From: a bacterium
GTDB lineage: Bacteria > Patescibacteriota > Minisyncoccia > Phycocordibacterales > VMGT01
DNA: 39,182 nt
Assembly (NCBI GenBank): GCA_023264615.1
Contig: JAHFLU010000002.1
Span: 1-39,182, forward strand
Direction of reading: 5' to 3'
Part shown: in pieces, positions 9,761 through 37,864 of the stretch
Position numbering within the stretch: the stretch's first letter is position 1
Layout of the letters: each line of letters opens with the position of its first letter
Program-made: the position numbers and the translations under genes
Notes under the pieces: model-generated
The model's database searches: none
The model's input: only the letters and a program-made list of their open reading frames with translations
What the model was told of the DNA's origin: nothing

Positions 9761-12700
9761 CTACTCTCCCGTGAGAGCGCTGATCCGTCTTTGCATCTCT
9801 GCAAGCGTGTCTGCAAGAGAGGTGAGGACAGATGCGTTCATATGTGCGGGATTTGTTGTATAGGAGTTGATCGTCTCATTGACACTCTCAAGTTGTGAGG
9901 CGATAGAGGCAATTTGGGTAGTGCGCTCTGGGATACGAGCGCCGAGTGCAGGGAGCACTGTTGCACTGCCGACGAGATAGTTCTCGACACTCCAGCCATC
10001 AGCGCCGGTAGCGTAGTCGATATTCCACCAGGTAAAGGCATTTGCTATGGTGGGACCTGCGATAATGGTACCGAGCTGCTCAAGGGTGAACTGCTTGCCA
10101 AGGACTGCGCAGAGTGTACCGGCACAGGAGCGGACATTGAGGGGGCCATTCCCTACTTTGATGGTATCACCTACCTTAAACTTCAGTGTCTTTGCGCTGA
10201 CAGAGAAGGATCGTGCACTCAGGTTGCCTGCGGCATCATAGGCAGAAACCGTGTACGTGTAGGTAGTAAGAGGTGTGAGCATCGTGTCTGCATACGTAGT
10301 GGTGGTTGTTCTCGCTATCTTAAGACCATTGCGATAGACATCGTATCCTACGACACCGACGGCATCAGTCGATGCGCTCCATGAGAGAGTGACCGCGGCT
10401 GAGGAGACGGGGGTAGCTTTCAGATTGAGAGGGACCGTAGGGGGAGTAGTGTCTATGGGAAGAGTACCGAAGAGTTTAATCTCTGCTGCAGCAGTCCATG
10501 GGTTAGCATTGACTTCGCTTACAGCAACAAACTTGATGTAGAGAGCATTCCGTGCGGTGAAGTTGACACGTTTCTCCTCTGCGCTGTTGAGGAACGTTCC
10601 GGTAGCAACGGCAAGGCCCCAGTTCACACCGTCAGTGCTTAAATAGAGCGTGTAGCCTTTCACGTTGCCGTTGACCTCAGGTACGTCCTGTCGGGGAAGG
10701 TAGCTTAAGCCTGAGACAGAGTATGTGCTGTCGAGCTTGAGGACGATGGTATGGGGATGCGGTGGAGAGGCGATGCCGAGTGGGTTGCCAAGAGAATCAG
10801 TCCACTCAGTCACCCACTTGGTGGCTGGGTTAGCATCGATTGCGTTCGTCGCTGCGCCGTTTTCTCCCACGAGTTCCTCACTGTCCACGGAGAAGACGGA
10901 GAGGTGTGTGGAGAGGATAGGGAGAGGATTCCGAACCGTTACCGTAAGGGGGAGAGAAGTTGCTTTGTTTCCTGCAGCGTCTCGTGTCAGAGCAGTGATG
11001 GTATATGAGCCGTTTGGAACTGTTGTCGTGTTCCAGCCGCCGGTGAGAGTGAAAGGAGAGGGAGCAGTGGTGTCTTCGGGGCCCAGGGGCTGGTTGACCA
11101 TGCCCGTGCCAGAGAGGAAGAACTGCACTCCCACAACAGCAATGTTGTCCGAAGAATTAGCGGAGACAGGAACGGTGCCGGAGACGACTGCTCCCAGTAT
11201 GGGTGCGGTCATGGAGACCGTAGGGGGAGTGGTATCAGGCGGTACCATAATGCTTTGGATCTCCGATGCGCTCAACGCTCGGTTGTAGAGACGGACATCA
11301 TCGATCGTACCGTTCAAGTATTCACCAAACTGGCTGGCACCGATCTGAAGGATACCGGTAGTGTTTACGGGGGAAACAGAGGAGAGAGCAGTGGCTACTT
11401 GCATACCATCTTTGTATAGACGCAGCGTTGTACCGTCAAAGGTCAGGACAAGGTGAGCCCAGATATTAGCGGCAAGAGGTGTGGGAGTGCATGCCACGGT
11501 AGTAGAGACGCCATCGCTTATGCCACCTATTGGTGCGCCCGTGGCACAGTACGTGTTCGAGCCTGCATAGAGGAAGTAGGTATAGTTTTTAACGATGATG
11601 GAGCGGAAGTTCGTGATGACTACGGCGGGCTTAACCCAGGCAGCGAGGGTGAAAGGACTCGTGAGGTCGACTGAAGCAGAGTCAGGAACTCCGATGTACT
11701 GATTGATGCCGTTTAAGAAGATGGCGCCTCCTACTTTGCCTATGGTCCAGATGGGAGCGTTGATGAGCGTGCCGTTCTGAACTCCGTCTGCTGTGGCGGA
11801 GTCTTTGGCTGTGATGCCGGAAGCATCGTCAAAGCGGAGGTGGACGAGCGGGGTGAGCGCTGGGGGGACAATCGTGGAAGAGACCACCGTGCCACTTAAG
11901 GTCAGATTTCCCCAGAGATTGGGACGAAAATAACTTCCGGTAGTAATCAAATTCATCCAGTCGAATTGCTTGCTGATCCCATTATCTCGGTCGTTGTTTC
12001 CAAGCAACAGCCCGAGGACTTTGTTCGCGGCAGGTAGTGTATTCATCGTCGACCATGGAAGGGCGATTTCCATGGTGTAGCCGGTTAAGCTCGTCACAGT
12101 TTTAACGATGGGGCCGGCCGGACTCACGAGGTTATGGATATTCATCGCGAAAGAAAAATCATTCGCATCCATCGCGGTTGATTTGTTGTTTAACGTGTCC
12201 AGATAGATTTCCGCGCCGTCGTCTTGGTAGTATTGAAGATCGGCTGCCTCGAGTTTGGAGTCGGTGACTTGATACGCGAGATACAGATTTTGATTGTCCC
12301 AAAGGCCGAAGACTTTCACCTGATTGTCGCTTTGGGCTGAATTTGAGAACGAGACGGAATTCGCCTGCGACCAGATAGCTTCTGAAAGATTGCCATCAAT
12401 AACAATGGGAACATCGGTTTTGAAGGCGGTGAGGTTATTATTCACGGGAACAACGGGAACACTCGAAGCGTTGACACTAATTGTTACACTAGCACTCCCG
12501 CTTCCTCCCGACCCCGTACACGTCAGTGAATACAGCGTTGTCGCTGTTGGAAAAACGACAAATGATCCGAAAAGCTGTTGAACACCAGACCATCCGCCGG
12601 ATGTGCTGCAGTTCGTTACGTTCGTTGATGACCAGTTCAGCGTCGAGGACTGACCGGAGGTGATCGTGAGAGAGGATGCGGTGAGAGTGACTGTAGGGGC

Positions 12701-14062
12701 GGGGGGAACCAAAACGCTGCTGCCTCCAAATTCATACGCGCCGATGTCGTAGACCACGCCTTGGGGGCGGGAACGGCCGTCGATGTCGGTGGTAATGCCG
12801 AGAGAGGAGAGGTTCATACCTGCGTCGATCGCGGGAGAGCCGGCCTGGAGGTGGAAGTCCGCGCCGGCGGGGTTGAGGAAGACATTTGCGGCGCTTGCCG
12901 CTTTAGTACAGCCAATTGTGAAGGGAGCACTAAGAGAGTCGCAGATGTTCGCGGCAAAATCGAGATTGGTTGTATTTTGGTCAAGAATGTTCCACTTGTG
13001 ACCGATGACAATGTTATTTTTTACCCTGACACCACTTCCGTCGGGCCAGATACCGATTTCGCCGTTGTTGTACACGGAGTTGTTGTAGACATCTGTTCCA
13101 CCGTTCGCATGAATGCCGTCTAAGTTGTTATACACAAGATTGTTGTAGATGTGATTGCCCGGGTGGGCGACGATTCCCCAATTGTTGTGATTGTTGTAAA
13201 AAGATGAATTGCGGATCGTATTCCTCGTCGACGTACACCCTTCACAGGTGAGCTGGATACCGTTGCCGCTATTGTCATGCGAGGAGACCTGTTCGATCAG
13301 ATGATCAGTTCCAGTGATATAAAGCCCGTGCGGACACGGTTGGCCATCATCGTTACGATGGCCGACACACGGCGAACCATCCCTGTTAAATCTAAAGTCG
13401 TGTATGTGCAGATTGCGCATTATGTGAAAACTCCCCGACGTGATTATTCCTTCACCGTTGCCGTTCATGAGTTCAGCGTTTTGAACAACCATATGGTCAC
13501 CATCTACGCTGTACCCGTTTCCCGATCTATTGTCGGTTGTTTGCGTCTGGAAGCCCGCATTTACATTGATTCCGTCAACAGTGACGTAACTCCCGCCTAA
13601 ACTAACGACTCCTCCCCCTCCCGGGTAACCAAAAAACATCGGTTGTAATAATACCCGCTCGCCAGCCGCCGCTCTGATGATTGTCGGAGCTCCAGCCGTC
13701 CCGCTGGGGACGGCGACAGTGACGGCTGTATTGAATGAGGCAATGATCTCGTTGTACGTGCCGCCGCCGATAATGAGCGTATCCCCACCCGCCATACAGG
13801 CGATGCCGGCGTTGATGGTGAGTTTCGGTCCCTGGCCGCAGGGCGTACTGTTATTCCCGGACTTCGAAACAAAATACGTCGCCGCCAACGCCGATGAACT
13901 GAAAACAAACCAGGGTAGAATAACACCGAACACCACGCCGAGTAAAAGCTCAGCGGCTCGCATCGTGTGCCTTTCTTGTACGTGTGCATCCGTCGTATCA
14001 AAACAACTACTCTTGTTACGCTTCGCTGTAGGTAAAAAGGAGGAAGCAATAGATTTAAGCAT
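9761..14062 (-). CDS. Giant secreted multidomain protein. N-to-C order: beta-helix, Ig/PKD-like, CBM9-like, LamG, Ig-like, F5/8-type-C, FN3, SH3b, helical tail
   Basis: 1433-aa ORF. The likely start is Met34 (ATG 13963), giving the signal peptide MRAAELLLGVVFGVILPWFVFSSSALA. Parallel beta-helix repeats are 'HIYNNLVYNN..VYNNSVYNN' ending 'DIDGRSRPQG.VYDIGAYEF'. 'DDVRLYNRALSASEIQ' is LamG/ConA-like. 'AIDANPATKWVTEW' is discoidin-like. 'PPTVPLNLKATP..VTLSWSAS..GYDVYRNG' is FN3. 'FKVGDTIKV..LNVRSCAG' is SH3b. Confidence 0.85.
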   Translation of the reverse strand: MLKSIASSFLPTAKRNKSSCFDTTDAHVQERHTMRAAELLLGVVFGVILPWFVFSSSALAATYFVSKSGNNSTPCGQGPKLTINAGIACMAGGDTLIIGGGTYNEIIASFNTAVTVAVPSGTAGAPTIIRAAAGERVLLQPMFFGYPGGGGVVSLGGSYVTVDGINVNAGFQTQTTDNRSGNGYSVDGDHMVVQNAELMNGNGEGIITSGSFHIMRNLHIHDFRFNRDGSPCVGHRNDDGQPCPHGLYITGTDHLIEQVSSHDNSGNGIQLTCEGCTSTRNTIRNSSFYNNHNNWGIVAHPGNHIYNNLVYNNLDGIHANGGTDVYNNSVYNNGEIGIWPDGSGVRVKNNIVIGHKWNILDQNTTNLDFAANICDSLSAPFTIGCTKAASAANVFLNPAGADFHLQAGSPAIDAGMNLSSLGITTDIDGRSRPQGVVYDIGAYEFGGSSVLVPPAPTVTLTASSLTITSGQSSTLNWSSTNVTNCSTSGGWSGVQQLFGSFVVFPTATTLYSLTCTGSGGSGSASVTISVNASSVPVVPVNNNLTAFKTDVPIVIDGNLSEAIWSQANSVSFSNSAQSDNQVKVFGLWDNQNLYLAYQVTDSKLEAADLQYYQDDGAEIYLDTLNNKSTAMDANDFSFAMNIHNLVSPAGPIVKTVTSLTGYTMEIALPWSTMNTLPAANKVLGLLLGNNDRDNGISKQFDWMNLITTGSYFRPNLWGNLTLSGTVVSSTIVPPALTPLVHLRFDDASGITAKDSATADGVQNGTLINAPIWTIGKVGGAIFLNGINQYIGVPDSASVDLTSPFTLAAWVKPAVVITNFRSIIVKNYTYFLYAGSNTYCATGAPIGGISDGVSTTVACTPTPLAANIWAHLVLTFDGTTLRLYKDGMQVATALSSVSPVNTTGILQIGASQFGEYLNGTIDDVRLYNRALSASEIQSIMVPPDTTPPTVSMTAPILGAVVSGTVPVSANSSDNIAVVGVQFFLSGTGMVNQPLGPEDTTAPSPFTLTGGWNTTTVPNGSYTITALTRDAAGNKATSLPLTVTVRNPLPILSTHLSVFSVDSEELVGENGAATNAIDANPATKWVTEWTDSLGNPLGIASPPHPHTIVLKLDSTYSVSGLSYLPRQDVPEVNGNVKGYTLYLSTDGVNWGLAVATGTFLNSAEEKRVNFTARNALYIKFVAVSEVNANPWTAAAEIKLFGTLPIDTTPPTVPLNLKATPVSSAAVTLSWSASTDAVGVVGYDVYRNGLKIARTTTTTYADTMLTPLTTYTYTVSAYDAAGNLSARSFSVSAKTLKFKVGDTIKVGNGPLNVRSCAGTLCAVLGKQFTLEQLGTIIAGPTIANAFTWWNIDYATGADGWSVENYLVGSATVLPALGARIPERTTQIASIASQLESVNETINSYTTNPAHMNASVLTSLADTLAEMQRRISALTGE

Positions 14063-14390
14063 GGTTTGTATTATATAGATTCATTAATCTATATATACTA
14101 TCACAGGTAGCTTTAGTAACCGCAGTTGAAGGGGGGGTTTTTCCACAGACATGGACTTGTAATACTTTAGGATTTTTTCAATCAAGAAAGACTGCTTTTA
14201 GAAATTCCCTCCCGTCTCATGAGACGGTCTTCGCGGGGTCTGGGTGAGCGCCACAATGACATGTGAAATAGTGTGTTGTTGAAAAATATAGATTCTTGTA
14301 AAAATGCTTTTCCGAACTTTTTTTGTCCCAAAATATGTTGTTAAATAATATTGAAATGGAGTGCGGGAGAGAGAAAAAGCGGTGTTTTGC

Positions 14391-21775: not shown

Positions 21776-22009
21776 CTAAAGTCGCTTATTGATCCGTCCC
21801 TTGCCACCGTAGGGGTCAAGCTCGATTTTCACTTTGTCGCCGACCAAAACCCGAATACGATGCAATCGCATCTTGCCGGAAAGATAGGCAATCATTATGG
21901 TTTTATCTTCTGTTACAACACGAAACAACGTGTTGGGCAAAGCTTCCACAACAGTTCCTAGAATAGTCCCTTCCTCCTCGTTTTTCTTAGTATGATCTGG
22001 CGTTTGCAC
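21776..22009 (-). CDS. infA: Translation initiation factor IF-1
   Basis: 77 aa with a GTG start. '[17 protein letters not shown]...[35 protein letters not shown]' is the S1-like IF-1 fold signature. Confidence 0.9.
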
Positions 22010-22029
22010 TGTTCTTTGATTGCTGAATC

Positions 22030-22058
22030 ATGCTACCAAAAAGACAGCAAATGGTCAA
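22030..22058 (-). promoter_or_regulatory. Possible promoter for the infA-rpmJ-rpsM... block
   Basis: Read on the minus strand: TTGACC (22058-22053), a 17-nt spacer, then TAGCAT (22035-22030). It lies just downstream of the 22093-22133 terminator. The leader would be short. Confidence 0.3.
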
Positions 22059-22092
22059 GCATCTGTACGCGTAGCCGCAGCTCTCTGCTGTC

Positions 22093-22133
22093 GGAAAAAG
22101 AGATACCGGGCAATCGACGTGTGGATTGCCCGG
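22093..22133 (-). terminator. Intrinsic terminator insulating the accessory cluster from infA
   Basis: 10-bp stem CCGGGCAATC / GATTGCCCGG (22106-22115 / 22124-22133) with an 8-nt loop. On the minus strand it is followed by TATCTCTTTTTCC. It starts 10 nt after the stop at 22143. Confidence 0.7.
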
Positions 22134-22142
22134 TTATTGTTG

Positions 22143-23168
22143 CTATCGGCCGTCTTCTTCTGTGGTTGTGCCGAGGCCCGACAGATTTTTTGGTACGACA
22201 CGACGACGATTCGGCATGAATCTTGGAGCGCGAGGAGCGCGTGAGAGTGTGACAAGGAGCGTCGGCAGCTCGCCGGTGCGCTTTGCTTCGTTAAACTTTG
22301 CAATGGCTTTCGGCGCCATCCCATGCATCACGAGATACCGCGATGACTTTGTGAGATGATCGCGCAACCACGAGGTATGCGACTCATTTTTCGGATCAAT
22401 CTCGCCAGATCGCACCGCAAAAAAGACAACTTGCTTTACTTCATCCGCCACACCGCTCCAATTGACGCGGCCAACACCCATGCCATTTTTCGCCAGCGCC
22501 TTCGTCGATTCCAGAGGATCCGCCGGATAGATAGACTGAGCATCTACTCCGACCGAAACCAACTCATACGGAGTGCTGGAGTCATCGTAATAGATGTTAT
22601 CTTCTGCGCTATCACGGCCTTCTTCCAGGCCCATGATATATTCAATCGTGAGATCACGATTGATACTACCATCGCCATTGATCACGATGATCGGAACACC
22701 GAGACGATTCTCAACCTGGTCCATGACCATGAGGAACATGTTCCGGACTTTCGGATTATACCCGGCGACAATCGCCGGCACAGAGATCATGCTTGAGAGA
22801 TCCATTCCTCCCATGCCTGTATTGCCGGCCATCCCGGCAACCATAAACATCGAGAGCATGCTTGGATCCATCCCGAGCGAAGATGCAAAATTGTTGACCT
22901 GCGCAGGTGATGGTTTCACCCCGTCAGGAATTTCGGCATCGGGATCTGTTTCACCATTTCCCGCAACTGTCACCAGAGGCGGAGCTGGCGCAAAAGCTGC
23001 AGCTACTTTTGCAGCGGTGACCATACCACATCCGGTGACCTCCTTGATCTGTGCTGACGTTAAAAACGCCATGTCAGACTCAAGGTTGACGCCCTCCTCG
23101 ACAAGTTTGGCAATTTGAACGTCAGAAATGCCTAGCCCGGTAAGTTTTTCCTGAAATGCTGTGTCCAT
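22143..23168 (-). CDS. Orphan protein: HhH-like N-terminus, Met/Gly-rich linker, globular C-domain, basic tail
   Basis: The ATG at 23168 is preceded by AAGGGG 8 nt upstream; the track start 23177 is a GTG. 341 aa. 'LTGLGISDVQIAKLV' and 'VTGCGMVTAAKVAAAF' look like helix-hairpin-helix units. 'MLSMFMVAGMAGNTGMGGMDLSSM' is low complexity. The C-terminus is 'SRAPRAPRFMPNRRRVVPKN'. No family recognised. Confidence 0.7.
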   Translation of the reverse strand: MDTAFQEKLTGLGISDVQIAKLVEEGVNLESDMAFLTSAQIKEVTGCGMVTAAKVAAAFAPAPPLVTVAGNGETDPDAEIPDGVKPSPAQVNNFASSLGMDPSMLSMFMVAGMAGNTGMGGMDLSSMISVPAIVAGYNPKVRNMFLMVMDQVENRLGVPIIVINGDGSINRDLTIEYIMGLEEGRDSAEDNIYYDDSSTPYELVSVGVDAQSIYPADPLESTKALAKNGMGVGRVNWSGVADEVKQVVFFAVRSGEIDPKNESHTSWLRDHLTKSSRYLVMHGMAPKAIAKFNEAKRTGELPTLLVTLSRAPRAPRFMPNRRRVVPKNLSGLGTTTEEDGR

Positions 23169-23313: not shown

Positions 23314-23350
23314 CTAAAAAAGTAAAGGCGATGCTGTTTCAGCATCGCCT
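23314..23350 (-). terminator. Intrinsic terminator after the PurA-like gene
   Basis: 11-bp stem AGGCGATGCTG / CAGCATCGCCT (23326-23336 / 23340-23350) with a 3-nt loop. On the minus strand it is followed by TTACTTTTTTAG. Confidence 0.7.
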
Positions 23351-23369: not shown

Positions 23370-24776
23370 TTATATGCATATCTTGTCACGTTCGGTTGGC
23401 CCGAAAGATACCATTCGTACGGGAACCCCGAGCTTTTCCTGCAGTACTGTCCCGCAAAGAGCAATCATTTCTTTTTTTGACATATGCGACATATCATATG
23501 TCGTCGTTTTTGGACGGCACGATTCGAGTACCTTACCTGCCTCCTCCATCATCTGGAGATGCTCTTCGTTACCGAGTAAACGGTTTACGTAGAGATGTCC
23601 GCGCGGATTAAAAAAGAATGGCTCACGTTGGTGGATATCTCCATAATCTGTGCAAATAGACCACACGCCATTTTTTTCAATCTGATCAAACCATGTGAGA
23701 GCGATTCCGTCGAATGCCTTTGTCCCTCCGCATACTTCTATCGCATAACGTAACAACACGATGTCGAGCGGACCAACACGCACTTTTCCCTGCCATCTGT
23801 TTTCTTCCTTGTGGCTACCGGGAAGGAGTGTTTCGTTCATGCTGGGATCTTCTGTCGGCATCGGCCCTGCGCCGTGGCGAATCGAGTATGCGCGTGTGAC
23901 GCCAAGATGCACGATTTCGTCTCTATAGCCACATTCGTAAAGTAAGGGAAACACCGTTACATTTGGAATCGTTCGTAATTTAGAGGTGTGCGGGGCAAAA
24001 CCAAAATACTTGTCGGTGAGAACTCCGTGCGAACTTTCAACGACCGCAACACCCTCGCGTGCAAGTACATCTGTCTGGAGATAGTCACTACCTACAATGT
24101 TTACGAGCTGTGTCATTTCCCGAAAACCGTTGGTTGTCACCCCCGAGAAATTTTCGTTGAAAAGCATCGTTGTAAGTTGGTTTGCATCTGCGCGGTCGGC
24201 TTCGAGAAATGCTTGGGTTTTGAGCTCGAGAATTGGGCGCAGTTCACGTACTTTTTGCCGTCGCACGTCTTCAAGCATACTGCACAGATCTCGCCCTTTC
24301 AGGTCGCGTACTCGTATCGCGTACTGTGGAGACACCTCTGCATCGAGATAGGCTTCTCCGACACCGGTCCCGATTGTTCCGCGCGGGTTATCTCTTCGCG
24401 CAAGTTCGCGCAGCTGTGTGGACATGGTATGAAATGGGGTGGAACAAAGAGTATTTTCGTCAACCGTCATGAGGTCAAAGATATTTTGAACGCCACAGGT
24501 ATATTGGAGCATCCTGCCTTCGTGGACGAGACCCAAAGGATCGATCACCATATTGCGTGTAATGTGTGTTCGCGTTCCCTCAAGCGTTCCACAGCCAAAA
24601 AAACTAAAGTTGAATGACAGGCCACCCGATGTACGTACACCATGACTTCCTTGTGAACCGCCTACCTTGATAATCGTATGGGCCCTGCGATAGGTGGACA
24701 GCTTGTGGATAACACTACCCTTGCCGCCATCACCGGGACCGAGGTCGGTTACGACATACACTTTGCTGGTCGACAT
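23370..24776 (-). CDS. Adenylosuccinate synthetase (PurA)-family enzyme, divergent
   Basis: 468 aa. 'VVTDLGPGDGGKGS' (P-loop GDEGKG type), 'GSHGV', 'GTIGTGVGEAY', 'VESSHGVLTD', 'TRAYSIRHGAGPMPTE' and the C-terminal 'VSFGPTERD' are collinear with PurA motifs. Several substrate motifs are altered (see findings). Confidence 0.8.
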   Translation of the reverse strand: MSTSKVYVVTDLGPGDGGKGSVIHKLSTYRRAHTIIKVGGSQGSHGVRTSGGLSFNFSFFGCGTLEGTRTHITRNMVIDPLGLVHEGRMLQYTCGVQNIFDLMTVDENTLCSTPFHTMSTQLRELARRDNPRGTIGTGVGEAYLDAEVSPQYAIRVRDLKGRDLCSMLEDVRRQKVRELRPILELKTQAFLEADRADANQLTTMLFNENFSGVTTNGFREMTQLVNIVGSDYLQTDVLAREGVAVVESSHGVLTDKYFGFAPHTSKLRTIPNVTVFPLLYECGYRDEIVHLGVTRAYSIRHGAGPMPTEDPSMNETLLPGSHKEENRWQGKVRVGPLDIVLLRYAIEVCGGTKAFDGIALTWFDQIEKNGVWSICTDYGDIHQREPFFFNPRGHLYVNRLLGNEEHLQMMEEAGKVLESCRPKTTTYDMSHMSKKEMIALCGTVLQEKLGVPVRMVSFGPTERDKICI

Positions 24777-24842: not shown

Positions 24843-26021
24843 TTAGAGCCACTGGTCTTCTTCGTCTGGATGACCTGTAGGCACAACATCTTTTGAGACA
24901 ACGGGAGTTGCCGTAGGAGTACTACTGCCAATTGGCCAAAGATCGCTCTTGTTGGTAAACCTTGCTCCTTTAAGCGGAAGCTTGCTGAAATTTGGAAGCA
25001 TTGTCTGTGCGCCAATGGGAATGTGGCGGACAGATGATTTTATGAGCTGTGCGTCAACACGGCTTACGTTGTTAGTATTGCCTACCCCGCTGCCTCGCAG
25101 AAACTGTTCGAGATTCTGTAGGTCAAGCGTTCCTTCGGTCAGGCCGATGATGGCCGCCTGCAACTGCGGCAGCAGTGCTGTTCTTGTCGATTTGACGATT
25201 CGCTCCGGACCAAAAATAGGGGTCCAAAAGTGGGTTGTTTCACTTGCATCACCAACCTGAATCAGAAACGCATGCGCCCTCGTGACAAGAGATGCTACGA
25301 CTTCGCGCGTCTCCGGAACATCTTGAGCGTTGATCTGGTGGCCGTTTTCGAGGGCTTTGGCAAATACATCCTCACCAAATATTGTCTTGAGCCAGCCTGC
25401 ATCAACGCTGTGACGACCAGGAGCGTCAGTCACCGTGAAATCGTACGATTTCAACCCGTACTTGTTAATATCGGCGGCTGTGAGATACGCCGCACCGAAT
25501 AATCCATACTGCGGGTCTTCAGCCGTATCGCCGCCATCCCGTGCCGGAACCATATACCGTAGTTGTTCGGCGATTCGAACGTCCATCTCTGCCTGGGAAC
25601 GGCAGAGCACAGGCCCCTTGCCTTTCTGTTGGTCCTGGATATCCCCAAAGATGCTCATGATCACTTGGGGGTCATAGCGTTTCAGTACTGCATTGTTTCC
25701 GGTTACCAATAGGTCATAAATCGACGGTAACACATCAATGGCTACATCGACATTACTCCCCATGCTTCCGGTGGTGTCGAGGCGGGACTCGATGAGCATT
25801 GCGACGCCCCGCAGAAGCTCAAAACACCCCTTCCGTGGTTCAAACCAAGAAATCGACCGGCGTATAACACCGTATCCTTTCGGATCAACGAGCTCATGGA
25901 TGGTGTGGGACATCTCATATTGTTGTTCGGCAACATGAGAGGCCCTACCCCTGCTATCTCCATCTCTCGATTTCTCGGCGACATGAACAAAGGCTTCTCG
26001 AGACGATGTATATCTGCCCAT
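24843..26021 (-). CDS. von Willebrand factor A (vWA) domain protein with MIDAS motif
   Basis: The start is taken at ATG 26021 (MGRYTSS...), 5 nt after the upstream gene's stop. 'ESRLDTTGSMGSN' (DxTxS MIDAS), 'SIFGDIQD' and 'FTVTDAPG' (the TDG-type last MIDAS Asp). The C-terminal approx. 150 aa are unassigned. Confidence 0.7.
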   Translation of the reverse strand: MGRYTSSREAFVHVAEKSRDGDSRGRASHVAEQQYEMSHTIHELVDPKGYGVIRRSISWFEPRKGCFELLRGVAMLIESRLDTTGSMGSNVDVAIDVLPSIYDLLVTGNNAVLKRYDPQVIMSIFGDIQDQQKGKGPVLCRSQAEMDVRIAEQLRYMVPARDGGDTAEDPQYGLFGAAYLTAADINKYGLKSYDFTVTDAPGRHSVDAGWLKTIFGEDVFAKALENGHQINAQDVPETREVVASLVTRAHAFLIQVGDASETTHFWTPIFGPERIVKSTRTALLPQLQAAIIGLTEGTLDLQNLEQFLRGSGVGNTNNVSRVDAQLIKSSVRHIPIGAQTMLPNFSKLPLKGARFTNKSDLWPIGSSTPTATPVVSKDVVPTGHPDEEDQWL

Positions 26022-26026
26022 AATTT

Positions 26027-26857
26027 TCACCCTTGTAGTGGAAATGTGGTATATGGCCAATATTCGCGAGGCCAAAGTGACTCTACGAGTTTATAGAAAT
26101 CTGTATGCGCACGGCTCGCATCATCTTCGCCGCCGCATGCAAGATGATACAAATAACTCGCATACATTCCTTGCGGATCCTGCCCATCCTCATAATACTC
26201 GCCTGTTGTCGCATCACCTCCTAGTGCGATGGTTATGATCGCTGCGGCCTTGGCAATTTGCTCTTTCCGTATATCCGCAGGCACTAAATCTTGATGATAC
26301 GCTGCTGCGGTCATGTCGAAAAAGAGAATGAAATGTTGCTCTCGCTCAATAAGTACGTTGTCTCCGGTCATGCGACCGGGTGAGATATTCTGGCTGTATG
26401 AGAATGCGAGGAATTTAAGCAACTTGCCCATCATCCACGCACTGGTCTTGCAATCAACGCGTACTTTGTCGCGTGTCGTGATATGTCGCACTGGTACGAG
26501 GGTCCGAAGATCCGGAACGGCATGAAAATCGAGAATATTGACCCGGCGCCCACCTTGACGCTCTGAAATAAAGCTCTCGTGCAGATCAGGAAAACAGAGT
26601 TGATAATTCAGAAAAACATTTGGATCGCTTTTCACTGCCATGTACTCGTCTTCCAACAATGCTGCATGACCCCTCATTTCCGAGAGAAATTCTGCTTCAT
26701 CGGCGATGAGGGCATTGTGCTCGGTTGTGGCAGCGATTTTCAAAATATAGCTTTTGTCGCTACCACGACACGAATACAATTTGAAGTTCTTTGTCTTCCC
26801 GAGCGGTTGGAGAATGTCATACGACCCGTTGGGACTTTTAAGAATCTTTTTTTCCAA
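26027..26857 (-). CDS. Protein-kinase-like fold protein (atypical kinase or pseudokinase)
   Basis: The TTG start at 26857 has a strong SD (GAGGAGAAAG) 8 nt upstream. An upstream in-frame ATG hits a stop. Ordered landmarks are 'LGKTKNFKLY', 'YILKIA' (Lys), 'EAEFL' (Glu), 'GDNVLIE' and 'LFFDMT' (Asp). Confidence 0.55.
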   Translation of the reverse strand: MEKKILKSPNGSYDILQPLGKTKNFKLYSCRGSDKSYILKIAATTEHNALIADEAEFLSEMRGHAALLEDEYMAVKSDPNVFLNYQLCFPDLHESFISERQGGRRVNILDFHAVPDLRTLVPVRHITTRDKVRVDCKTSAWMMGKLLKFLAFSYSQNISPGRMTGDNVLIEREQHFILFFDMTAAAYHQDLVPADIRKEQIAKAAAIITIALGGDATTGEYYEDGQDPQGMYASYLYHLACGGEDDASRAHTDFYKLVESLWPREYWPYTTFPLQG

Positions 26858-26971: not shown

Positions 26972-27029
26972 CTGAAAAGCCCGTGATTTTAAGCGGTAAA
27001 ATAATAGCTTGGAGTTTGGAGATTTTTTC

Positions 27030-27683
27030 ATGGAAACCGTTTATTCTCCGTCAAATCTGCCCATTTTTGCTCCCCATACGTCTGGCCATGCAATTCCGGT
27101 TCCTGAAGAGCGCATCTGTTGTGCTGTTCCCTATGCGACCAATATTTTAGCGCCTTGGGAACTACAAAAGGCGGCTGTGGGAGCATGGCACATGATTATC
27201 GAACTGGACATGCCGAAAAGAAATGTCACGTTCTGGCCGGAAGGGTATCCTGAAGGGATGCCTCGCTGTGACGAATATTCGAATAATGAGGTGCTTTATA
27301 CGTGTACGCCCCTTGAGGTCATGCAGTATGGGGACAATGAAGCTGCAGACCTGTTGTATCTCACGTATCGGTCATATCCCGGTGTCAAAGTTTTCAAGGT
27401 GAGAAAAACAGTTCCTGTCATTGTCCTCGGACAAGTCACTAGGAATAGTATGTTCCGCACGGCAGAGAGTCTTCTCGGAAAAGCTGCTGCGGTTCCTGCG
27501 GACTCCTACATTTTGAAAAGTCCTCTTGTCGAACAGTATTACTTTAACACTCCAAAAAAGTTCGAGCAGTTGTATGGTGGTGTTATACATCCGGGATCAG
27601 TGCCAAATAAGGCGCTCTGTGATGTAAAAGAGGGATGGGCAAACTTCGGGGTTGATACAAGTTTCTTGCAAAAGCAAAGCTAG
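27030..27683 (+). CDS. Orphan protein, unknown function
   Basis: The ATG at 27030 is preceded by GGAG 8 nt upstream; the track start 27009 is a TTG. 217 aa, soluble-looking, no motif recognised. Confidence 0.55.
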   Translation: METVYSPSNLPIFAPHTSGHAIPVPEERICCAVPYATNILAPWELQKAAVGAWHMIIELDMPKRNVTFWPEGYPEGMPRCDEYSNNEVLYTCTPLEVMQYGDNEAADLLYLTYRSYPGVKVFKVRKTVPVIVLGQVTRNSMFRTAESLLGKAAAVPADSYILKSPLVEQYYFNTPKKFEQLYGGVIHPGSVPNKALCDVKEGWANFGVDTSFLQKQS

Positions 27684-27855: not shown

Positions 27856-29232
27856 TTACTCTGTAGATTTTACCGATGGTGATTTTGTAGTGTCTTTCGT
27901 CTTCGTTTCATGTGCTTCATTTTCAACGATAACCTTGATTTTGGAAACACTTTTGGGGAATGATTTCTTCCATACTGGGCGTATGGTGACTTCAGCCTTT
28001 GCTATACCTGGATATTTACCAAGTACAGTATTAATCTCTTTTTTTGGTTTGCCGACAAGATCATTAAGGAGAGCTGTTTTTTCAAAGTTCCATACGATGG
28101 AAGGGTTCCCGGTGATCGTAAGTCGAATGACATCTCCTGTCCACGGCTTCCCTTCAGGATCATCCGTCGTGATTGAGATTGCAAGGGTCTTTAGGTTTTG
28201 AATATGTATCGGTGCATTATCAAAATTCGGAATGGTTATCCGTGCGATGTATTCTGAAAGGAGAGCTTCATTGAAAATGATGCCGTGGAGCGTTATTTTC
28301 TCTCCTACGTTCACCATAGCTTCTGTATCGGTTGGCGTGTTTGGGAGCGATGTTACTTCGTCGTAGACCGCAGAATCAAAAAGAATAAAACCCTCCGGCA
28401 CCTCTTTCTGTGCTTGTGTGCGGAGTTGTTGAGAGAGCTGTGTTCGGAGAGTAGTGCGTGCTTCGGTTTCTTTTGTTACATCAACAACCTTCATCATGCC
28501 TTCAAACCCGCCGGTGATCGGCGTTTTTGTTTTAGCATAAAACCCACTAAATTGCGGAGTGTTCTTGAGGCCAGGAATCGTAAAAAGCGCAGAATCGATA
28601 TTGAACTCTGCCCCTGCAGTATCTGAATATACTGAAGCATCAACACTCCCCGGCTTTTTAGTGCCGTCTTTTTTTTCCTGTGGCGGTACAGTAACGGTAT
28701 TTGCAATCCGGTAAATAAGGCCATTCGGTGATTCGAAGCGTGTATTTTTGACGAGGCGCAAAGGCTGGTCGTTGTAGTCGTTAAAAATAGTAATTACCCC
28801 AGAGGCCTTTTGCTCAACATATTTCTCGCCTGTTGCAGGAACCGGCGTGACGTTTTCAGCGGAAATCGACATTGTTTCAAAAGGAAGCTCGAGCGGAAGT
28901 GGATTCTGTTTCGCGACAAAACTACCATTTATCGTAGTTTGTTGTTCTCGAGGCGTGACGGTGATGGTCGCTCCGGCAAAAAATACCGCAAACGTAAGAT
29001 AAAGGAGGACGATTGCGGCGCCTGCTGTTATCCATATACCAAGTCCCGAATGACCGCGTGAAAGCGGCTGCGGTGGAGGGAAACCCGGGCGTCGCGGGGG
29101 TCTACTTACTGGTTCCGAAAGAGGCGGTATGGGAGTGCTATTTATTGGGCGCGATGCCTCTGTGCCCGGCACGACGATCTGTCGTATCGAACGTCGCGGT
29201 GGAACAACGTCTTGAATGATAGGTTTTGCCAT
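27856..29232 (-). CDS. Bitopic membrane protein with a Pro-rich cytoplasmic N-terminus and a large extracytoplasmic domain
   Basis: 458 aa. 'PPRRSIRQ...PIPPLSEPVSRPPRRPGFPPPQP', then one TM (LGIWITAGAAIVLLYLTFAVFFAGA), then about 370 aa that look beta-rich. No family recognised. Confidence 0.7.
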   Translation of the reverse strand: MAKPIIQDVVPPRRSIRQIVVPGTEASRPINSTPIPPLSEPVSRPPRRPGFPPPQPLSRGHSGLGIWITAGAAIVLLYLTFAVFFAGATITVTPREQQTTINGSFVAKQNPLPLELPFETMSISAENVTPVPATGEKYVEQKASGVITIFNDYNDQPLRLVKNTRFESPNGLIYRIANTVTVPPQEKKDGTKKPGSVDASVYSDTAGAEFNIDSALFTIPGLKNTPQFSGFYAKTKTPITGGFEGMMKVVDVTKETEARTTLRTQLSQQLRTQAQKEVPEGFILFDSAVYDEVTSLPNTPTDTEAMVNVGEKITLHGIIFNEALLSEYIARITIPNFDNAPIHIQNLKTLAISITTDDPEGKPWTGDVIRLTITGNPSIVWNFEKTALLNDLVGKPKKEINTVLGKYPGIAKAEVTIRPVWKKSFPKSVSKIKVIVENEAHETKTKDTTKSPSVKSTE

Positions 29233-29322: not shown

Positions 29323-30537
29323 CTATGTTTTAAATAATGCATGGAGAACAGCGAGATATATGGATTCGATTCCGACAAAGAAATCTGGTTCTTCTACGCG
29401 CACGAATCGGACATGCTCCCCGAGTACTTGTGGAGTGAGGTGTGTAACACTATATCCCTGCGAACCGAGGGTTTTTCTCCCGACATTTTCTTTGTGCACC
29501 CACGACGCAAACAGCTCTCCTACATCAGGGTCTGCCATCATATACACTTGGCGTGGAATGGATTCTGCTTCAAGAACATACGAGAGTATTTTTTCAAAAT
29601 ACGCTACCCATTGTTTTCCTGCTGCCTCGATCGCTGCCTCGATCGCAAGAGATGCTTCGGGGGTTGTTTTTTTTGATATGTGTTGCCGCAGGCGCGAGAG
29701 CGCCTCTTCCGGAGTGGTCTGTAGAGTTCTTGCAGTGTCACGAAGCATTGAATTTTTTCCGTATGGGGTTGAGCAGGTTTCGACGAGAACGCCATTCTTT
29801 GAGAAAAAAATATCGGTTACTTCGCCGGTAACATCGATGAGCATAAAATTATCATTTTTAGGAAAGAGATCGCGTGTAACGGTAAATGATGCAAGCGCGA
29901 AGGAATGAAATGAAATTTTTTTGTTCAGCCAGGTTTTACGGACAATACTTTGGATACGGCTGCCGATTTCCTGTGCCACCGCGGATGTAAAGAGGGCGAC
30001 TTCAATGTGCGAGGCATTTTGCTCATAAGGCTTCGCTGTTTCATAGCCGTTGAGGAGAATTTGAATTATCTTTGTTTCGATTGTTTTCGGTTCATTTGTC
30101 TGATTTTCATGCAGTTTTCTTTCTTGCGAGGTTAAAAGACTTTGTTCAACGAGGTTATTGACAAGTACGTTTGTTACAAGAAAAGGCATGTCTTTTTCGT
30201 AGCAGAGGATTTTTGTTGTCGATGTATACCAAGGAGATGCAAGCATGCAATGAATATGTTGGACATCGCGTGCGCGTATGCCCGAAAGGTTACTATGCTC
30301 AAACGCTTCGCGATGGAGGCGGGTCGTTGCGGTTTCGAGTGCATGTAACATTGCTCCCAAAAAACGCTTGAATCCGAGATGTTGGTAGTAGGCGATGTTT
30401 TCACGCGTGACGTAGAGAATTTTCGGGTATTGCTTTTTTTCCAATGCGACAATAGCCGCACCGACACTGCCGCTGCCAATGTCGAGTACGATCGCGAGTT
30501 CCTTTTTCTGTACTGACGAAAAAGACAAAAATACCAT
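29323..30537 (-). CDS. Actin-like (ASKHA) ATPase, PilM/FtsA-like
   Basis: 404 aa. Phosphate-1 'IVLDIGSGSVGAAIV' and phosphate-2 'MLIDVTGEVTDIFF' are spaced as expected for the actin fold. The subfamily is not resolved. Confidence 0.6.
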   Translation of the reverse strand: MVFLSFSSVQKKELAIVLDIGSGSVGAAIVALEKKQYPKILYVTRENIAYYQHLGFKRFLGAMLHALETATTRLHREAFEHSNLSGIRARDVQHIHCMLASPWYTSTTKILCYEKDMPFLVTNVLVNNLVEQSLLTSQERKLHENQTNEPKTIETKIIQILLNGYETAKPYEQNASHIEVALFTSAVAQEIGSRIQSIVRKTWLNKKISFHSFALASFTVTRDLFPKNDNFMLIDVTGEVTDIFFSKNGVLVETCSTPYGKNSMLRDTARTLQTTPEEALSRLRQHISKKTTPEASLAIEAAIEAAGKQWVAYFEKILSYVLEAESIPRQVYMMADPDVGELFASWVHKENVGRKTLGSQGYSVTHLTPQVLGEHVRFVRVEEPDFFVGIESIYLAVLHALFKT

Positions 30538-31521: not shown

Positions 31522-33393
31522 TTACTGGATCACTGCCTTGATACGGCGGATGCCTGCGGAAACAGCTTCTTCTTTTTGTATCTTGAACACCCCTTTTTCT
31601 CCGAGTTCTTTTGTATTTTGAACATGGGGGCCGCCGCAGAATTCGAGACTGAATATGCCGGAGGCAGTATCCCCTACCTGATATATCTTCACCTCGTCGC
31701 CATATTGGTCATCGAAGAGGCCGATAGCGCCGCGTTTTTTGGCTTCCTCAATAGGCATTATTTGATAGGAAACAGGAAGCGCTTCGGATATTTTTTGATT
31801 GACGAGATTTTCTACGTTTCTTTTTTCTTCGTCACTCATTTTTTTCCCATGCGTAAAATCAAATCGCAACCGTTCGGGCGTTATGTTACTTCCTTTCTGA
31901 AAGACATGATCTCCAAGGATAGTGCGGAGCGCCTGCTGGAGCAAATGTGTTGCCGTATGATACTTGACTGACATGTCGCTATGGTCTGCAAGTCCCCCTT
32001 TGAATTTCTTTTCTGCTCCGATGCGTGATGTTTGTTGATGTTTTTGCATCTCTTTGTCGAAGGCTTTTCGGTTAACGTGTACATTTTTCTTTGCGGCAAG
32101 CTCTTCGGTCACTTCAATAGGAAAACCATACGTCTGATACAGATCGAAAGCTTGTTTGCCTGTCAGTTCTGCGGACTGTATTTTTTCAAATTCTTTGAGG
32201 CCGCGTTCAAGGGTTTTTCTGAAGCGCTCCTCTTCTTCTTTGATCTCTTGCACGATGATACTTTTGGCATTTTCTACGTTGGGATATGCTTCACTATATG
32301 CTTTTGTTATATGAGGTACGAGCGATGAAAGGATATTTTTCGGCATGCCTATGGTATCCATGTGGAGAATTGCACGTCGGAGAAGCCGCCGCGTAAAATA
32401 TCCGGCATCAGTATTTGTCGGAATAATGCCATCAGCGATCATAAATACTGCTCCGCGCAGATGATCTGTCACGATGCGGAATAATTTTTTCTTATCTCCT
32501 ATATACGAAATACTCGAGAGTTCTTCAATATGTTTTATAACTGTATAAAGAACGTCTATTTTAAAAATGTCGGGATCGTTCTCGCTTGCTGCGGCAATGC
32601 GTTCAAGCCCACCGCCGAAATCAACATTGCGCTGCGGTAGTTTCGAGAATGTACCATCAGCGTTCTTGAGGTATTCCATGAAGACAGAGTTGCCGATCTC
32701 CATGAATCGTCCACAATCGCAGTTTGGGTGACAGTGGGCGCCATATGCGGTATCGTGTTCTGTACCGAAATCATAAAAAACTTCGGTGTCAGGACCTCCG
32801 GGTTCTCCCGTCGGCATGTTGTCGGGGATGCCCGCGCGGCTCCACCAGTTTTTCTTGGCATTGTAGTAAAAAATACGCCCATTCTGCATACCCCTTTCCC
32901 CACCCTGTCTCTCCGTAAAAAGCTCGACATCTTTCGCATCGATGTCCTGCTCCTTAAAAAGTCTTTTCCAGAGTTGTACCGCTTCTGCATCACGCGGGAT
33001 TTTATTTTTCTCATCTCCGGCGAAAATCGTGATGTAGAGATTGTGCGGATCAAGACCAATTTCTTTTGTGAGAAACTCAAAAAACCATGGGATCTGTTCC
33101 TGTTTAAAGTAGTCTCCGAGCGACCAGTTGCCGAGCATTTCAAAAAAAGTTGTATGGCGGTTATCACCCACCTCTTCTATGTCTTCCGCCCGAAAACATT
33201 TTTGTGAGTTTACCAAACGCACCCCCTGGGGGTGTTTTTCTCCGAGGAGGTAAGGAAGCAGCGGCTGCATGCCGGAGCCGGTGAAAAGTGTCGTCGGGTC
33301 GTTTTCTGGTGAAAGAGACGCCGACAAGAGCACAGTATGCCCCCTTTCTGCAAAGAAACGAAGATATTTCATACGGACTTGGCTGATTTTCAT
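31522..33393 (-). CDS. alaS: Alanine--tRNA ligase, short form (623 aa, no C-Ala domain)
   Basis: 'FFAERGHT...S.SL.P.NDPTLLFT.SGMQP', 'NSQKCFRAEDIEEVGDNRHTTFFEMLGNWSLGDYFK', editing-domain 'HTATHLLQQAL' and 'FCGGPHV'. Confidence 0.93.
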   Translation of the reverse strand: MKISQVRMKYLRFFAERGHTVLLSASLSPENDPTTLFTGSGMQPLLPYLLGEKHPQGVRLVNSQKCFRAEDIEEVGDNRHTTFFEMLGNWSLGDYFKQEQIPWFFEFLTKEIGLDPHNLYITIFAGDEKNKIPRDAEAVQLWKRLFKEQDIDAKDVELFTERQGGERGMQNGRIFYYNAKKNWWSRAGIPDNMPTGEPGGPDTEVFYDFGTEHDTAYGAHCHPNCDCGRFMEIGNSVFMEYLKNADGTFSKLPQRNVDFGGGLERIAAASENDPDIFKIDVLYTVIKHIEELSSISYIGDKKKLFRIVTDHLRGAVFMIADGIIPTNTDAGYFTRRLLRRAILHMDTIGMPKNILSSLVPHITKAYSEAYPNVENAKSIIVQEIKEEEERFRKTLERGLKEFEKIQSAELTGKQAFDLYQTYGFPIEVTEELAAKKNVHVNRKAFDKEMQKHQQTSRIGAEKKFKGGLADHSDMSVKYHTATHLLQQALRTILGDHVFQKGSNITPERLRFDFTHGKKMSDEEKRNVENLVNQKISEALPVSYQIMPIEEAKKRGAIGLFDDQYGDEVKIYQVGDTASGIFSLEFCGGPHVQNTKELGEKGVFKIQKEEAVSAGIRRIKAVIQ

Positions 33394-34991: not shown

Positions 34992-35444
34992 TTATCTTGT
35001 TACGGTGATTGTTTTGCCTTGTTCTTCAAATTGAGCATCAACGGTCACGCGTCCGTTAGCAGTTTTGCGTATCATGTAGCCGACACCGTTTACATTTGTT
35101 TTTTGGGGTTCAATCGGTATGGATGTCAAATACTTTTCTCCCCAAACTAATTCGTTGAGGGGAGCGAGGCTTCCCGTCGTACAGGTTGTTGTTGCGGTAT
35201 TAGCAATGCAGATTTCTGTCGTGGTGGTGGTAATACCGGACGGCAGTACGCCGTTGTTGTCGATTGCATACTGATAAACCGCATTGAGAATTGTGGTGAC
35301 GTCAGCTTGACGCTCGGTATTTCTTGTATCGCCGAGTTGCTTGTTGGGGTTAATGGCAACAATAACAATCGCTGCCAATATTCCTATTGCAGCAACGACG
35401 AGAAGTATTTCGAGAAGAGTGAAACCTTTATGAGAGCTTTGCAT
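34992..35444 (-). CDS. Type IV pilin / GspG-like major pseudopilin
   Basis: The start is taken at ATG 35444: 'MQSSHKGFTLLEILLVVAAIGILAAIVIVAI', a class III signal with prepilin-type N-methylation (G|FTLLE). Confidence 0.8.
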   Translation of the reverse strand: MQSSHKGFTLLEILLVVAAIGILAAIVIVAINPNKQLGDTRNTERQADVTTILNAVYQYAIDNNGVLPSGITTTTTEICIANTATTTCTTGSLAPLNELVWGEKYLTSIPIEPQKTNVNGVGYMIRKTANGRVTVDAQFEEQGKTITVTR

Positions 35445-35466
35445 AGTGTATGTATAGGGAGATTTT

Positions 35467-35883: not shown

Positions 35884-35904
35884 ATGAGAGGTGTGGATAA
35901 AAGG

Positions 35905-37859: not shown

Positions 37860-37864
37860 ATGCG

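Follow-up and report, generated by a model that had tools for sequence, protein, structure and literature searches.

The DNA analysed here (the window) comprises positions 1 to 39,182 of contig JAHFLU010000002.1 (assembly GCA_023264615.1), which comes from a bacterium of the Patescibacteriota, and it encodes a 468-residue relative of adenylosuccinate synthetase (PurA) that we call C. C and its phage relatives grouped apart from PurA and PurZ. C kept the residues of the phosphotransfer core, carried conserved replacements for the residues presumed to bind inosine monophosphate (IMP) and L-aspartate, and lay in a cassette whose genes also accompany its relatives in large phages. We consider, with a probability of about 0.55, that C is a catalytically competent member of the PurA superfamily that uses guanosine triphosphate (GTP), belongs to a separate clade, does not make adenylosuccinate, and works with the proteins of its cassette; this reading rests on sequences and predicted structures. 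The letters used for the module are A for the pseudokinase-like protein, B for the vWA protein, C for the PurA-like enzyme, D for the SAM/(HhH)2-like protein, and E for the nucleotidyltransferase.

Residues 15-464 of C matched the Pfam model PF00709 (Adenylsucc_synt) with an E value of 1e-33 and 117 bits against a cut-off of 27, so the family assignment is not due to chance. The NCBIfam purA equivalogs TIGR00184 and NF002223 gave 85.2 and 90.1 bits against cut-offs of 395.55 and 402, and C thus fell short by a factor of four. The top match in the PDB was PurA 3hid (E 4e-14), and a profile of the C family reached PurA chains at 7e-19. With C or the family profile as query, no PDB chain of PurZ size (~340–365 aa) was found at E <= 0.01 except the archaeal PurA chains 2d7u and 5k7x. 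The identity of C to E. coli PurA (b4177) was ~24%. A preliminary description of this DNA, made by eye from the sequence, had put C at about 40 residues longer than PurA, which agrees with the 36 residues that separate it from the E. coli enzyme (432 aa).

More than 1336 homologues of C were found by a word-indexed search. The 120 listed were mostly ~460 aa long and 50–68% identical to C, and the named hosts among them were Parcubacteria and other Patescibacteria, with the proteins labelled 'adenylosuccinate synthetase' or 'hypothetical protein'. When one genome per species was scanned, 152 loci were confirmed and 80 of them kept for analysis; these loci covered Ryanbacteria, Sungbacteria, Falkowbacteria, Uhrbacteria, Nomurabacteria, Daviesbacteria, Saccharimonadia, and others. 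A Nanosyncoccus relative (L083) also has the cassette. The gene was vertically conserved among cellular genomes, with a mean column identity of 64% among 24 Patescibacteria sequences. IMG/VR contained just three copies of the Patescibacteria type, every one with the full cellular cassette, showing that this form of C is not viral. Two cysteines of C, Cys62 (F-G-C-G-T) and Cys349 (V-C-G-G), were invariant across the Patescibacteria family and had no counterpart in E. coli PurA.

For the active site, residues are numbered as in E. coli PurA (PDB 1ade), and counts out of 71 come from a MAFFT alignment of 71 Patescibacteria C sequences with the PurA of E. coli and Acinetobacter. The Acinetobacter reference was the canonical purA of L086 (CAKLQH020000034.1), a record titled 'Acinetobacter phage MD-2021a' that resembles a fragment of a bacterial chromosome (alaS, epd, hisZ, purA, crp). 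The translation contained all eight motifs quoted in the preliminary description at the following window coordinates.

24714..24740, minus strand: P-loop GPGDGGKGS (Asp16 = E. coli Asp13, Lys19 = Lys16); Asp in 69/71, Lys in 71/71
24636..24650, minus strand: GSHGV (His45 = E. coli His41; preceded by Gln42 in place of Asn38); His in 71/71, Gln in 69/71
24348..24380, minus strand: GTIGTGVGEAY, the IMP-phosphate loop, with Thr129->Ile, Arg131->Thr and Pro135->Glu; at position 129, 41 sequences have Ile and 30 have Val; Glu135 in 56/71
24012..24038, minus strand: ESSHGVLTD, with Gln224->His; His in 70/71
23850..23894, minus strand: RAYSIRHGAGPMPTE, with Val273->His; His in 71/71
23763..23801, minus strand: NRWQGKVRVGPLD, in place of the L-aspartate loop (E. 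coli 299-311); equivalents of Thr300, Thr301, Arg303 and Arg305 absent
23685..23699, minus strand: LTWFD, the guanine-specificity element, with Lys331->Trp and Asp333 kept; Trp and Asp each in 71/71
23385..23408, minus strand: SFGPTERD, the C-terminal guanine-binding S-x-G-P, from alignments to E. coli PurA

The placement of these motifs was upheld by a profile-to-structure alignment with 1ade and by MAFFT alignment with the E. coli and Acinetobacter enzymes. Neither alignment showed the canonical Gln, TTGR or TKxD motifs displaced to another place in C, a point that had been set as a test beforehand.

The phosphotransfer core was preserved, as the preliminary description had proposed. The window protein retained Asp13, Lys16, His41, Asp333, and Ser414/Gly416/Pro417, and across the Patescibacteria sequences the catalytic Asp13 was found in 69/71 and the catalytic His41 and P-loop Lys16 in all 71. 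Gly12, Gly15, Gly17, Glu221, and Asp333 were likewise invariant, and Asp229 was present in 70/71. For the guanine-binding S-x-G-P, Ser414 was conserved in 63/71, Gly416 in 71/71, and Pro417 in 61/71. The window protein differed from E. coli PurA by Asn38->Gln, Thr129->Ile, Arg131->Thr, Pro135->Glu, Arg143->Gln, Gln224->His, Thr239->Ser, Val273->His, and Lys331->Trp. Over the 71 sequences, the replacements were as follows.

Glu14 to Gly, 70/71
Asn38 to Gln, 69/71
Gly40 to Ser, 65/71
Thr42 to Gly, 71/71
Thr129 to Ile or Val, 71/71
Arg131 to Thr, Val, Ile or Ser, 69/71
Pro135 to Glu, 56/71
Arg143 to Glu, Asp, Gly or Gln, 68/71
Gln224 to His, 70/71
Thr239 to Ser, 61/71
Val273 to His, 71/71
Lys331 to Trp, 71/71

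Among the IMP-site ligands, Gln224, Asn38, Thr129, and Arg143' were replaced and just Thr239 was conservatively retained (Ser/Thr); the change of the IMP-contacting Gln to His had been noticed before and is nearly universal in the family. So is the change of the guanine-element Lys to Trp, which is found in all 71 sequences even though Asp333 and S-x-G-P are retained. The third earlier observation, that the Thr and Arg residues holding L-aspartate are unrecognisable, was also correct. Loop 298-311 reads G-A-T-T-G-R-R-R-R-T-G-W-L-D in E. coli and E-N-R-(W/Y)-Q-G-K-V-R-V-G-P-L-D in Patescibacteria C at equal length, with E-N-R-W-Q-G-K-V-R-V-G-P-L-D in the window. Thr300, Thr301, Arg303, and Arg305, which we take from the structural work of Honzatko and Fromm to be the aspartate ligands of E. 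coli PurA, are lost both in the gap-free alignment of the loop (MAFFT) and in the one that opens a gap of one residue (HMMER). The loop pattern (T/V)-T-G-R-x-R-R is kept by the PurA of E. coli, Acinetobacter, Bacillus (T-T-G-R-P-R-R), and Legionella (V-T-G-R-P-R-R).

That these substitutions are fixed across 71 homologues excludes decay and marks a functional shift under selection. PurZ of phage phiVC8, which still uses aspartate and is also only ~25% identical to E. coli PurA, keeps Val273 and much more of the loop (T-V-T-K-K-V-R-R), so that the loss in C is specific and not a by-product of divergence. The conserved substitutions, the failed equivalogs, and the contrast with PurZ all support, as far as sequences can, the guarded proposal of the preliminary description that C would have an altered specificity and a non-housekeeping product. 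That description had left the acceptor, the amine, or the nucleoside triphosphate (NTP) donor as the part that differs. A change of specificity still appears probable from the residues, but a change of donor does not, because Asp333 and S-x-G-P are kept and only the stacking Lys is altered, and the donor is therefore probably still GTP. The strongest evidence for a non-housekeeping role goes beyond that description and is the obligate gene neighbourhood shared with large phages.

In Patescibacteria, C lies in the same-strand cassette A-B-C-D. The neighbourhoods were compared by tBLASTn of the window neighbours against all fetched loci, followed by open reading frame (ORF) calling and clustering, and linkage was counted over 79 non-redundant Patescibacteria loci, with the loci reaching far enough as denominators. 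The cassette of the window is as follows.

26027..26857, minus strand: gene A, protein-kinase-like, 276 aa, by profile match to CK2 alpha
24843..26021, minus strand: gene B, vWA fold, 392 aa, with the metal-ion-dependent adhesion site (MIDAS) motif D-T-T-G-S, by AlphaFold2 model and Foldseek
23370..24776, minus strand: gene C, predicted PurA-like GTP-dependent enzyme, 468 aa, an ATG-start ORF
23326..23350, minus strand: terminator-like hairpin between C and D, 11-bp stem and T run, by consensus scan only
22143..23168, minus strand: gene D, 341 aa, N-terminal SAM/(HhH)2-like domain, variant D1, by Pfam SAM_TNK and AlphaFold2 model
22105..22134, minus strand: terminator-like hairpin after D and before infA, by consensus scan only

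B adjoined C upstream in 71/74 loci, A adjoined B in 66/71, and a D-family gene followed C in 56/72, with median spacers of 15, 33, and 33 nt along the cassette; in the window, B ends 66 nt before C. The convergent gene E (~590–650 aa) was found just past D in 66/67 other loci, the sole other locus without E after D being L072. By tblastn and hidden Markov model searches, E was absent from the 39-kb window, where D is directly followed by infA (junction 22009-22143) and the cassette abuts the ribosomal operon infA-rpsM-rpsK-rpsD-rpoA. No purB or other purine gene was found within the window, and no purB was seen in the sampled Patescibacteria loci.

The four partner families had no Pfam assignment above cut-off and bore only the name 'hypothetical protein' in their sources. 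The A family profile matched CK2 alpha (E 8e-8), and the match covered the N-lobe and the region of the catalytic loop. The beta3 position of 74 A sequences was Gln in 41 and Lys in 28, no Gly-rich loop was seen, and the position aligned by eye with the HRD Asp in the CK2 alignment was variable; Asn167 (67/74), a DFG-like Asp (61/74), and an invariant His175 were present. From its sequence, A is best described as pseudokinase-like and not as an active kinase.

The sequence of B matched nothing in Pfam or the PDB, and the vWA fold was revealed only by the predicted structure. The AlphaFold2 models of B and D were built on alignments of database homologues. The B model (predicted local distance difference test score, pLDDT, 86; predicted template modelling score, pTM, 0.87) matched integrin beta I-domain and vWF A3 in Foldseek with E 1.5e-5 and probability 1.0. 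The MIDAS residues Asp82, Thr84, Ser86, and Asp199 were invariant, and the disordered tail terminated in a nearly invariant W-L. The start of B at the ATG at 26021 is backed by homologues that begin with MG and by a 392-aa database protein 99% identical to it. The N-terminal Gly of B was considered as an amine nucleophile and dropped, as the second residue is not conserved.

The D proteins were all joined by single-linkage BLAST. They comprise two variants with a common N-terminal domain and alternative main domains, D1 (in the window) and the commoner D2. Pfam SAM_TNK matched 16/36 D members, and in the D1 model (pLDDT 85) the N-terminal 53 residues resembled the N-terminal domain of RAD51/RadA (probability 0.99, E 0.3). 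Despite the same pLDDT of 85, the D1 main domain had no match in the PDB or BFVD by Foldseek. E contains the minimal Pol-beta nucleotidyltransferase motif G-S-R-x-K-G-Y-G-x3-S-D-x-D-x-A-V-F-V, with weak matches to Pfam Polbeta and NTP_transf_2, and a PDB profile search led to the MNT-like HI0073 (E 0.002).

The same genes accompany the relatives of C in phages. A tBLASTn search of phage genomes with C gave 229 records, of which 201 were Mycobacterium phages; the sampled Mycobacterium records belonged to cluster C1 (Bixzunavirus) and carried a 'PurA-like adenylosuccinate synthetase'. This protein was 30% identical to C over 99% of its length (tBLASTn E 2e-38), which makes it a closer relative than any of the canonical PurA proteins. 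The genes of phage LifeSavor run in the order gp262 (annotated 'Ser/Thr kinase'), gp263, gp264, and gp265; gp262 corresponded to A (hhalign probability 98.7, E 2.6e-16), gp263 to B (probability 85, E 6e-6), and gp265 to C (BLASTP E 3e-52). The LifeSavor PurA-like protein shares with C Gln38, Glu135, His273, the W-Q-G-K-x-R loop, and G-P-T-x-R-D-K, and differs in keeping Gln224 (EGAQG) and in having T-H-L-D for T-W-F-D. No D or E genes were found within ~10 kb around the Bixzunavirus PurA-like gene.

The phage partners have additional domains. The Bixzunavirus A protein carries an N-terminal J-domain with HPD and its B protein is interrupted by an intein: in gp263 (L084 5912-7729), a Hint/intein module (weak matches to Pfam Hint and Intein_splicing) lies right after the conserved K-G-Y-C strand, and an insert of this type explains the length of 605 aa. 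The J-domain of the phage A versions (L084 4782-5912; L095 4000-5055) has the HPD intact, whereas Patescibacteria A lacks a J-domain, and in the cellular relative L097 the HPD of A is degenerate (H-A-D). The J-domain suggests that phage A recruits the host Hsp70.

Three further phages, Rhizobium phage RHph_TM39, Vibrio phage phiTY18, and one from faeces, also have a vWA gene of the B type directly upstream of their PurA-like gene. The B-C pair thus recurs in four unrelated phage groups, and the A-B-C triad in Bixzunavirus and in the phage-like metagenomic contig L095, where the order is J-domain A, B, C. A third gene common to the Rhizobium and Vibrio phages (L087 1756-2547) was rejected as A (hhalign probability 0.5, no Pfam match). 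The phage B proteins belong to phrog_2971, for which the function label is unknown, and the PurA-like proteins to phrog_1211, in which PHROGs also groups PurZ (C match E 2.3e-42). Glu135, His273, and an aromatic-Q-G-x-hydrophobic-R loop were common to C and the Mycobacterium, Rhizobium, Vibrio, and faecal phage proteins, the loop motif being (W/Y/F/H)-Q-G-x-(V/I/F)-R. Gln38 was found in C and all phage relatives except the Vibrio phage protein (Asn38), and the phage forms retained Gln224. In a neighbour-joining tree, C and the phage relatives stood apart from PurA and PurZ, in agreement with the shared derived residues.

Searching 1.84 billion cluster representatives (50% identity) exhaustively gave 1320 relatives at E <= 1e-30, a lower bound for the number of clusters in the wider clade, and 5196 at the looser E <= 1e-3. 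Of the best 150 representatives, 143 were aligned, comprising 108 that were phage-like (Asp13, Gln224, His273) and 21 that were Patescibacteria-like with His224; a small group had Glu13. His273 was present in ~136/143. Most of this wider clade keeps Gln224, Thr/Ser128, and Thr/Ser239, but the aspartate loop was altered in every member examined; of all features, the nucleophile is thus the one whose change is most certain. Two proteins, P0389 (1129 aa) and P0416 (1102 aa; L094 3421-6810), are fusions of the PurA-like domain to full-length E. The E profile matched residues 508-1129 of P0389 with hhalign probability 100 and E 3e-80, P0416 has the same C-terminal motifs, and the fusion gene for P0389 has A and B a short way upstream on its contig. 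P0395 (700 aa) has a PurA-like domain followed by a 230-aa C-terminal domain without detectable relatives, which is not A-like and had no PDB match. In distant relatives (33–38% identity), the same components occur reordered, as D-A-B-C, nrtR-A-B-C, and E-x-B-C with convergent D, and B was upstream of C in all five wider-clade contexts sampled. That the gene set survives both rearrangement and fusion argues strongly that the module proteins work together, presumably in a physical complex.

We propose the following mechanism. C would bind GTP, and its Asp-base/His-acid pair would phosphorylate an acceptor at a carbonyl oxygen. This acceptor would most probably be a nucleotide of the 6-oxopurine type, bound in the remodelled phosphate pocket; a purine-nucleotide-like acceptor is plausible from the sequence. 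As Arg143 and Thr129 are lost and Glu135 is gained, it may have a bulkier 5' substituent. The phosphate would then be displaced by an amine, which is probably not free L-aspartate, since the aspartate site has been rebuilt as His273 and the W-Q-G-K-V-R loop. B would probably dock an acidic group on C or on the target through its MIDAS site. A may serve as a scaffold that binds a nucleotide and, in phages, brings in Hsp70. E could regulate C by nucleotidylylation, much as GlnE regulates glutamine synthetase, or could handle the substrate or product, and in cells C would also work with D.

Several points weigh against this proposal. Retention of the catalytic residues in C is no proof of ligase chemistry, and the changes at Thr129, Arg143, and Pro135 (to Glu) mean that the acceptor may not be a nucleoside monophosphate at all. 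By analogy, an NTPase paired with a vWA protein is what one typically finds in remodelling machines without an enzymatic role (MoxR-vWA). As the window does not have E, this protein cannot be indispensable in every case. The neighbour-joining tree of PurA, PurZ, C, and phage relatives is crude, and long-branch effects could inflate the unity of the clade.

The remodelling analogy leads to an alternative that we regard as unlikely but serious, in which C has ceased to be a ligase and serves as a GTPase switch or motor: it would be the NTPase of a remodelling or chaperone pair whose other half is the vWA protein, with the pseudokinase and other proteins as adaptors. Its obligate pairing with a MIDAS-intact vWA protein across phages and bacteria, the Hsp70 involvement to which the HPD J-domain of phage A points, and the disappearance of the canonical substrate-binding residues of PurA would all fit. 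Asp13 and His41 serve IMP deprotonation and phosphoryl transfer and not plain GTP hydrolysis, yet they are retained (69/71 and 71/71), and Gln38, His224, His273, the W/Y-Q-G loop, and Glu135 are as strongly conserved as would be expected of a small-molecule site. Moreover, we know of no PurA-fold protein that acts as a switch. It is quite improbable that C is a genuine adenylosuccinate synthetase adapted to its lineage, making AMP from salvaged IMP with its neighbours as mere regulators. The full-length PF00709 match, the kept catalytic residues, and the naming by public pipelines speak for such an enzyme, as do genes for phosphoribosyl pyrophosphate (PRPP) synthetase, phosphoribosyltransferase, NUDIX, and nucleoside deoxyribosyltransferase proteins in several loci; but its four aspartate ligands and Val273, largely kept even in PurZ at 25% identity, are gone, its equivalog scores are a quarter of the cut-offs, purB is neither in the window nor seen in the sampled loci, and its closest relatives are phage genes tied to vWA and pseudokinase genes. 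That C is PurZ-like and makes a non-canonical DNA purine, such as 2-aminoadenine or another N6-modified base, seems scarcely credible to us, despite the common placement in phrog_1211 and the phage-borne relatives. The phiVC8 PurZ is 21% identical to C on a separate branch, and its GSTGKG P-loop, Val273, aspartate-type loop, and dATPase and polymerase neighbours are all missing from C, whose gene is vertically conserved in cellular genomes; the PDB searches, too, reached PurA but no chain of PurZ size at E <= 0.01, 2d7u and 5k7x aside.

A further alternative comes from the neighbours of the cassette. An NrtR-like gene (NUDIX and NrtR winged helix) adjoined it in 18/81 Patescibacteria loci, including L001, L004, and L013, and lay beside the module in two independent distant relatives, L096 (2032-2730) and L097 (2903-3577); it was often accompanied by pncA, pncB, nadE, prs, or ADP-ribosylglycohydrolase genes. 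Any gene of nicotinamide adenine dinucleotide (NAD) salvage or ADP-ribose metabolism (nrtR, pncA, pncB, ADP-ribosylglycohydrolase, prs) was found within 8 kb in 25/81 loci. In one wider-clade context, prs and nrtR were divergent from D-A-B-C, and another had nrtR-A-B-C. Rhizobium phage RHph_TM39 has a nicotinamide mononucleotide (NMN) adenylyltransferase/NUDIX gene ~4 kb from the PurA-like gene, and contig L095 encodes a WGR-PARP_reg-PARP protein (12638-14071), a poly(ADP-ribose) polymerase homologue, together with ThyX and a Dam-type methyltransferase. These neighbours point towards NAD or ADP-ribose metabolism, but we treat them as a lead only, because the Patescibacteria loci are phylogenetically non-independent. 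On this basis C could be an NAD- or ADP-ribose-linked ligase of the NrtR regulon that would use GTP to rebuild or repair an adenine cofactor, for instance by aminating a hypoxanthine dinucleotide again or by rejoining ADP-ribose to nicotinamide, for salvage in Patescibacteria and against NAD-depleting defences in phages, and a loss of the residues capping the 5'-phosphate would fit a dinucleotide acceptor. We consider this very unlikely: its basis is the neighbourhood, the window has no NAD-related gene near the cassette, and the phage NAD reconstitution pathways NARP1-3 rely on unrelated enzymes, NARP3 being unrelated to C (PMC13464706). A long shot that joins this lead to our preferred reading is an NrtR-controlled, GTP-driven multi-protein ligase of Patescibacteria and large lytic phages that would regenerate an adenine nucleotide or cofactor in one step, for example by amination of a hypoxanthine (di)nucleotide without aspartate and PurB, or by re-ligation of ADP-ribose and nicotinamide. 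If true, it would be a new salvage or counter-defence chemistry.

We found no description of the C clade or of the module in the literature, including work on Patescibacteria, NrtR, and mycobacteriophages, and a Patescibacteria transposon sequencing (Tn-seq) paper with its supplements did not mention gene C. The sole public labels were the automatic 'adenylosuccinate synthetase', the phage 'PurA-like adenylosuccinate synthetase', and a propagated '2-aminooxy adenylosuccinate synthetase'. The last, the name of phiVC8 PurZ, has spread to Rizal gp253 (NC_011272.1) and the whole of phrog_1211; as the mycobacteriophage protein lacks PurZ features, the name is probably an annotation error there. More than 1300 database proteins of the C type are named adenylosuccinate synthetase or match its Pfam model, and metabolic reconstructions of Patescibacteria that credit them with the conversion of IMP to AMP are probably wrong. 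The module around C may be a new multi-protein system. C marks a conserved five-component module across major classes of a largely uncultured phylum that depends on hosts for nucleotides, and the vWA and PurA-like core, often with a J-domain pseudokinase, offers an experimental handle in the genetically tractable Bixzunavirus. PurA-type chemistry with a new nucleophile could give a new nucleotide metabolite or modification, as PurZ does for the Z-base.

The remainder of the window is cellular, with infA, rpsM, rpsK, rpsD, rpoA, rpsI, dnaK, dnaJ, grpE, alaS, two-component, and type IV pilus-like genes; no tRNA genes were found within it. Two genes upstream of the cassette had only weak Pfam matches (GlxA beta-barrel; FtsA/actin-like). 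These two and the ORF 27009-27683 were rejected as module members, having no homologues in other loci, and a PADLOC-DB 2.0 scan of A, B, C, D, and the two upstream genes gave no meaningful match to a defence system. Other features of the window are listed below.

27856-29232 and 29323-30537, minus strand: the two upstream genes with weak Pfam matches
9761-14062, minus strand: multidomain protein of 1433 aa (CBM9, LamG-like, Big_7, F5/8 type C, fn3) with a probable role at the cell surface or in adhesion
31522-33393, minus strand: alanyl-tRNA synthetase of just 623 aa, in which the catalytic domain and the second-additional (SAD) domain are present and no C-terminal domain is matched by Pfam
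34992-39101, minus strand: type IV pilus/type II secretion-like cluster, with two N-terminal methylation motif proteins, a beta-propeller protein with LVIVD repeats and a T2SS-F platform protein

Compared with known systems, C resembles PurA (E. coli b4177; 1ade; PF00709) in its full-length fold, the P-loop with the catalytic Asp, the catalytic His, Asp333, and S-x-G-P, but is set in a vWA/pseudokinase/SAM-HhH/nucleotidyltransferase module and not among purine genes. Like PurZ (phiVC8 p27), it is a divergent member of the PurA superfamily with a predicted change of specificity and falls in the same PHROG. Unlike C, PurZ has an aspartate-type loop (T-V-T-K-K-V-R-R), Val273, a G-S-T-G-K-G P-loop, and a length of ~340 aa, and its gene in phiVC8 adjoins a dATP triphosphohydrolase gene near DNA polymerase I, with no vWA partner in that record; the motifs and neighbours of the PurZ type are absent from C. 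The third comparison is with the pairs of MoxR-type AAA+ ATPases and vWA proteins, which include RavA-ViaA, CbbQ-CbbO, NorQ-NorD, and BchI-BchD. C has the PurA fold (a SIMIBI/BioD-like P-loop enzyme) and not an AAA+ ring, carries ligase-type catalytic residues, and has no sequence relationship to MoxR. By analogy, the C-B pair may nevertheless be like them in that the gene for an NTPase is obligately paired with the gene for a MIDAS vWA protein, the presumed target adaptor.

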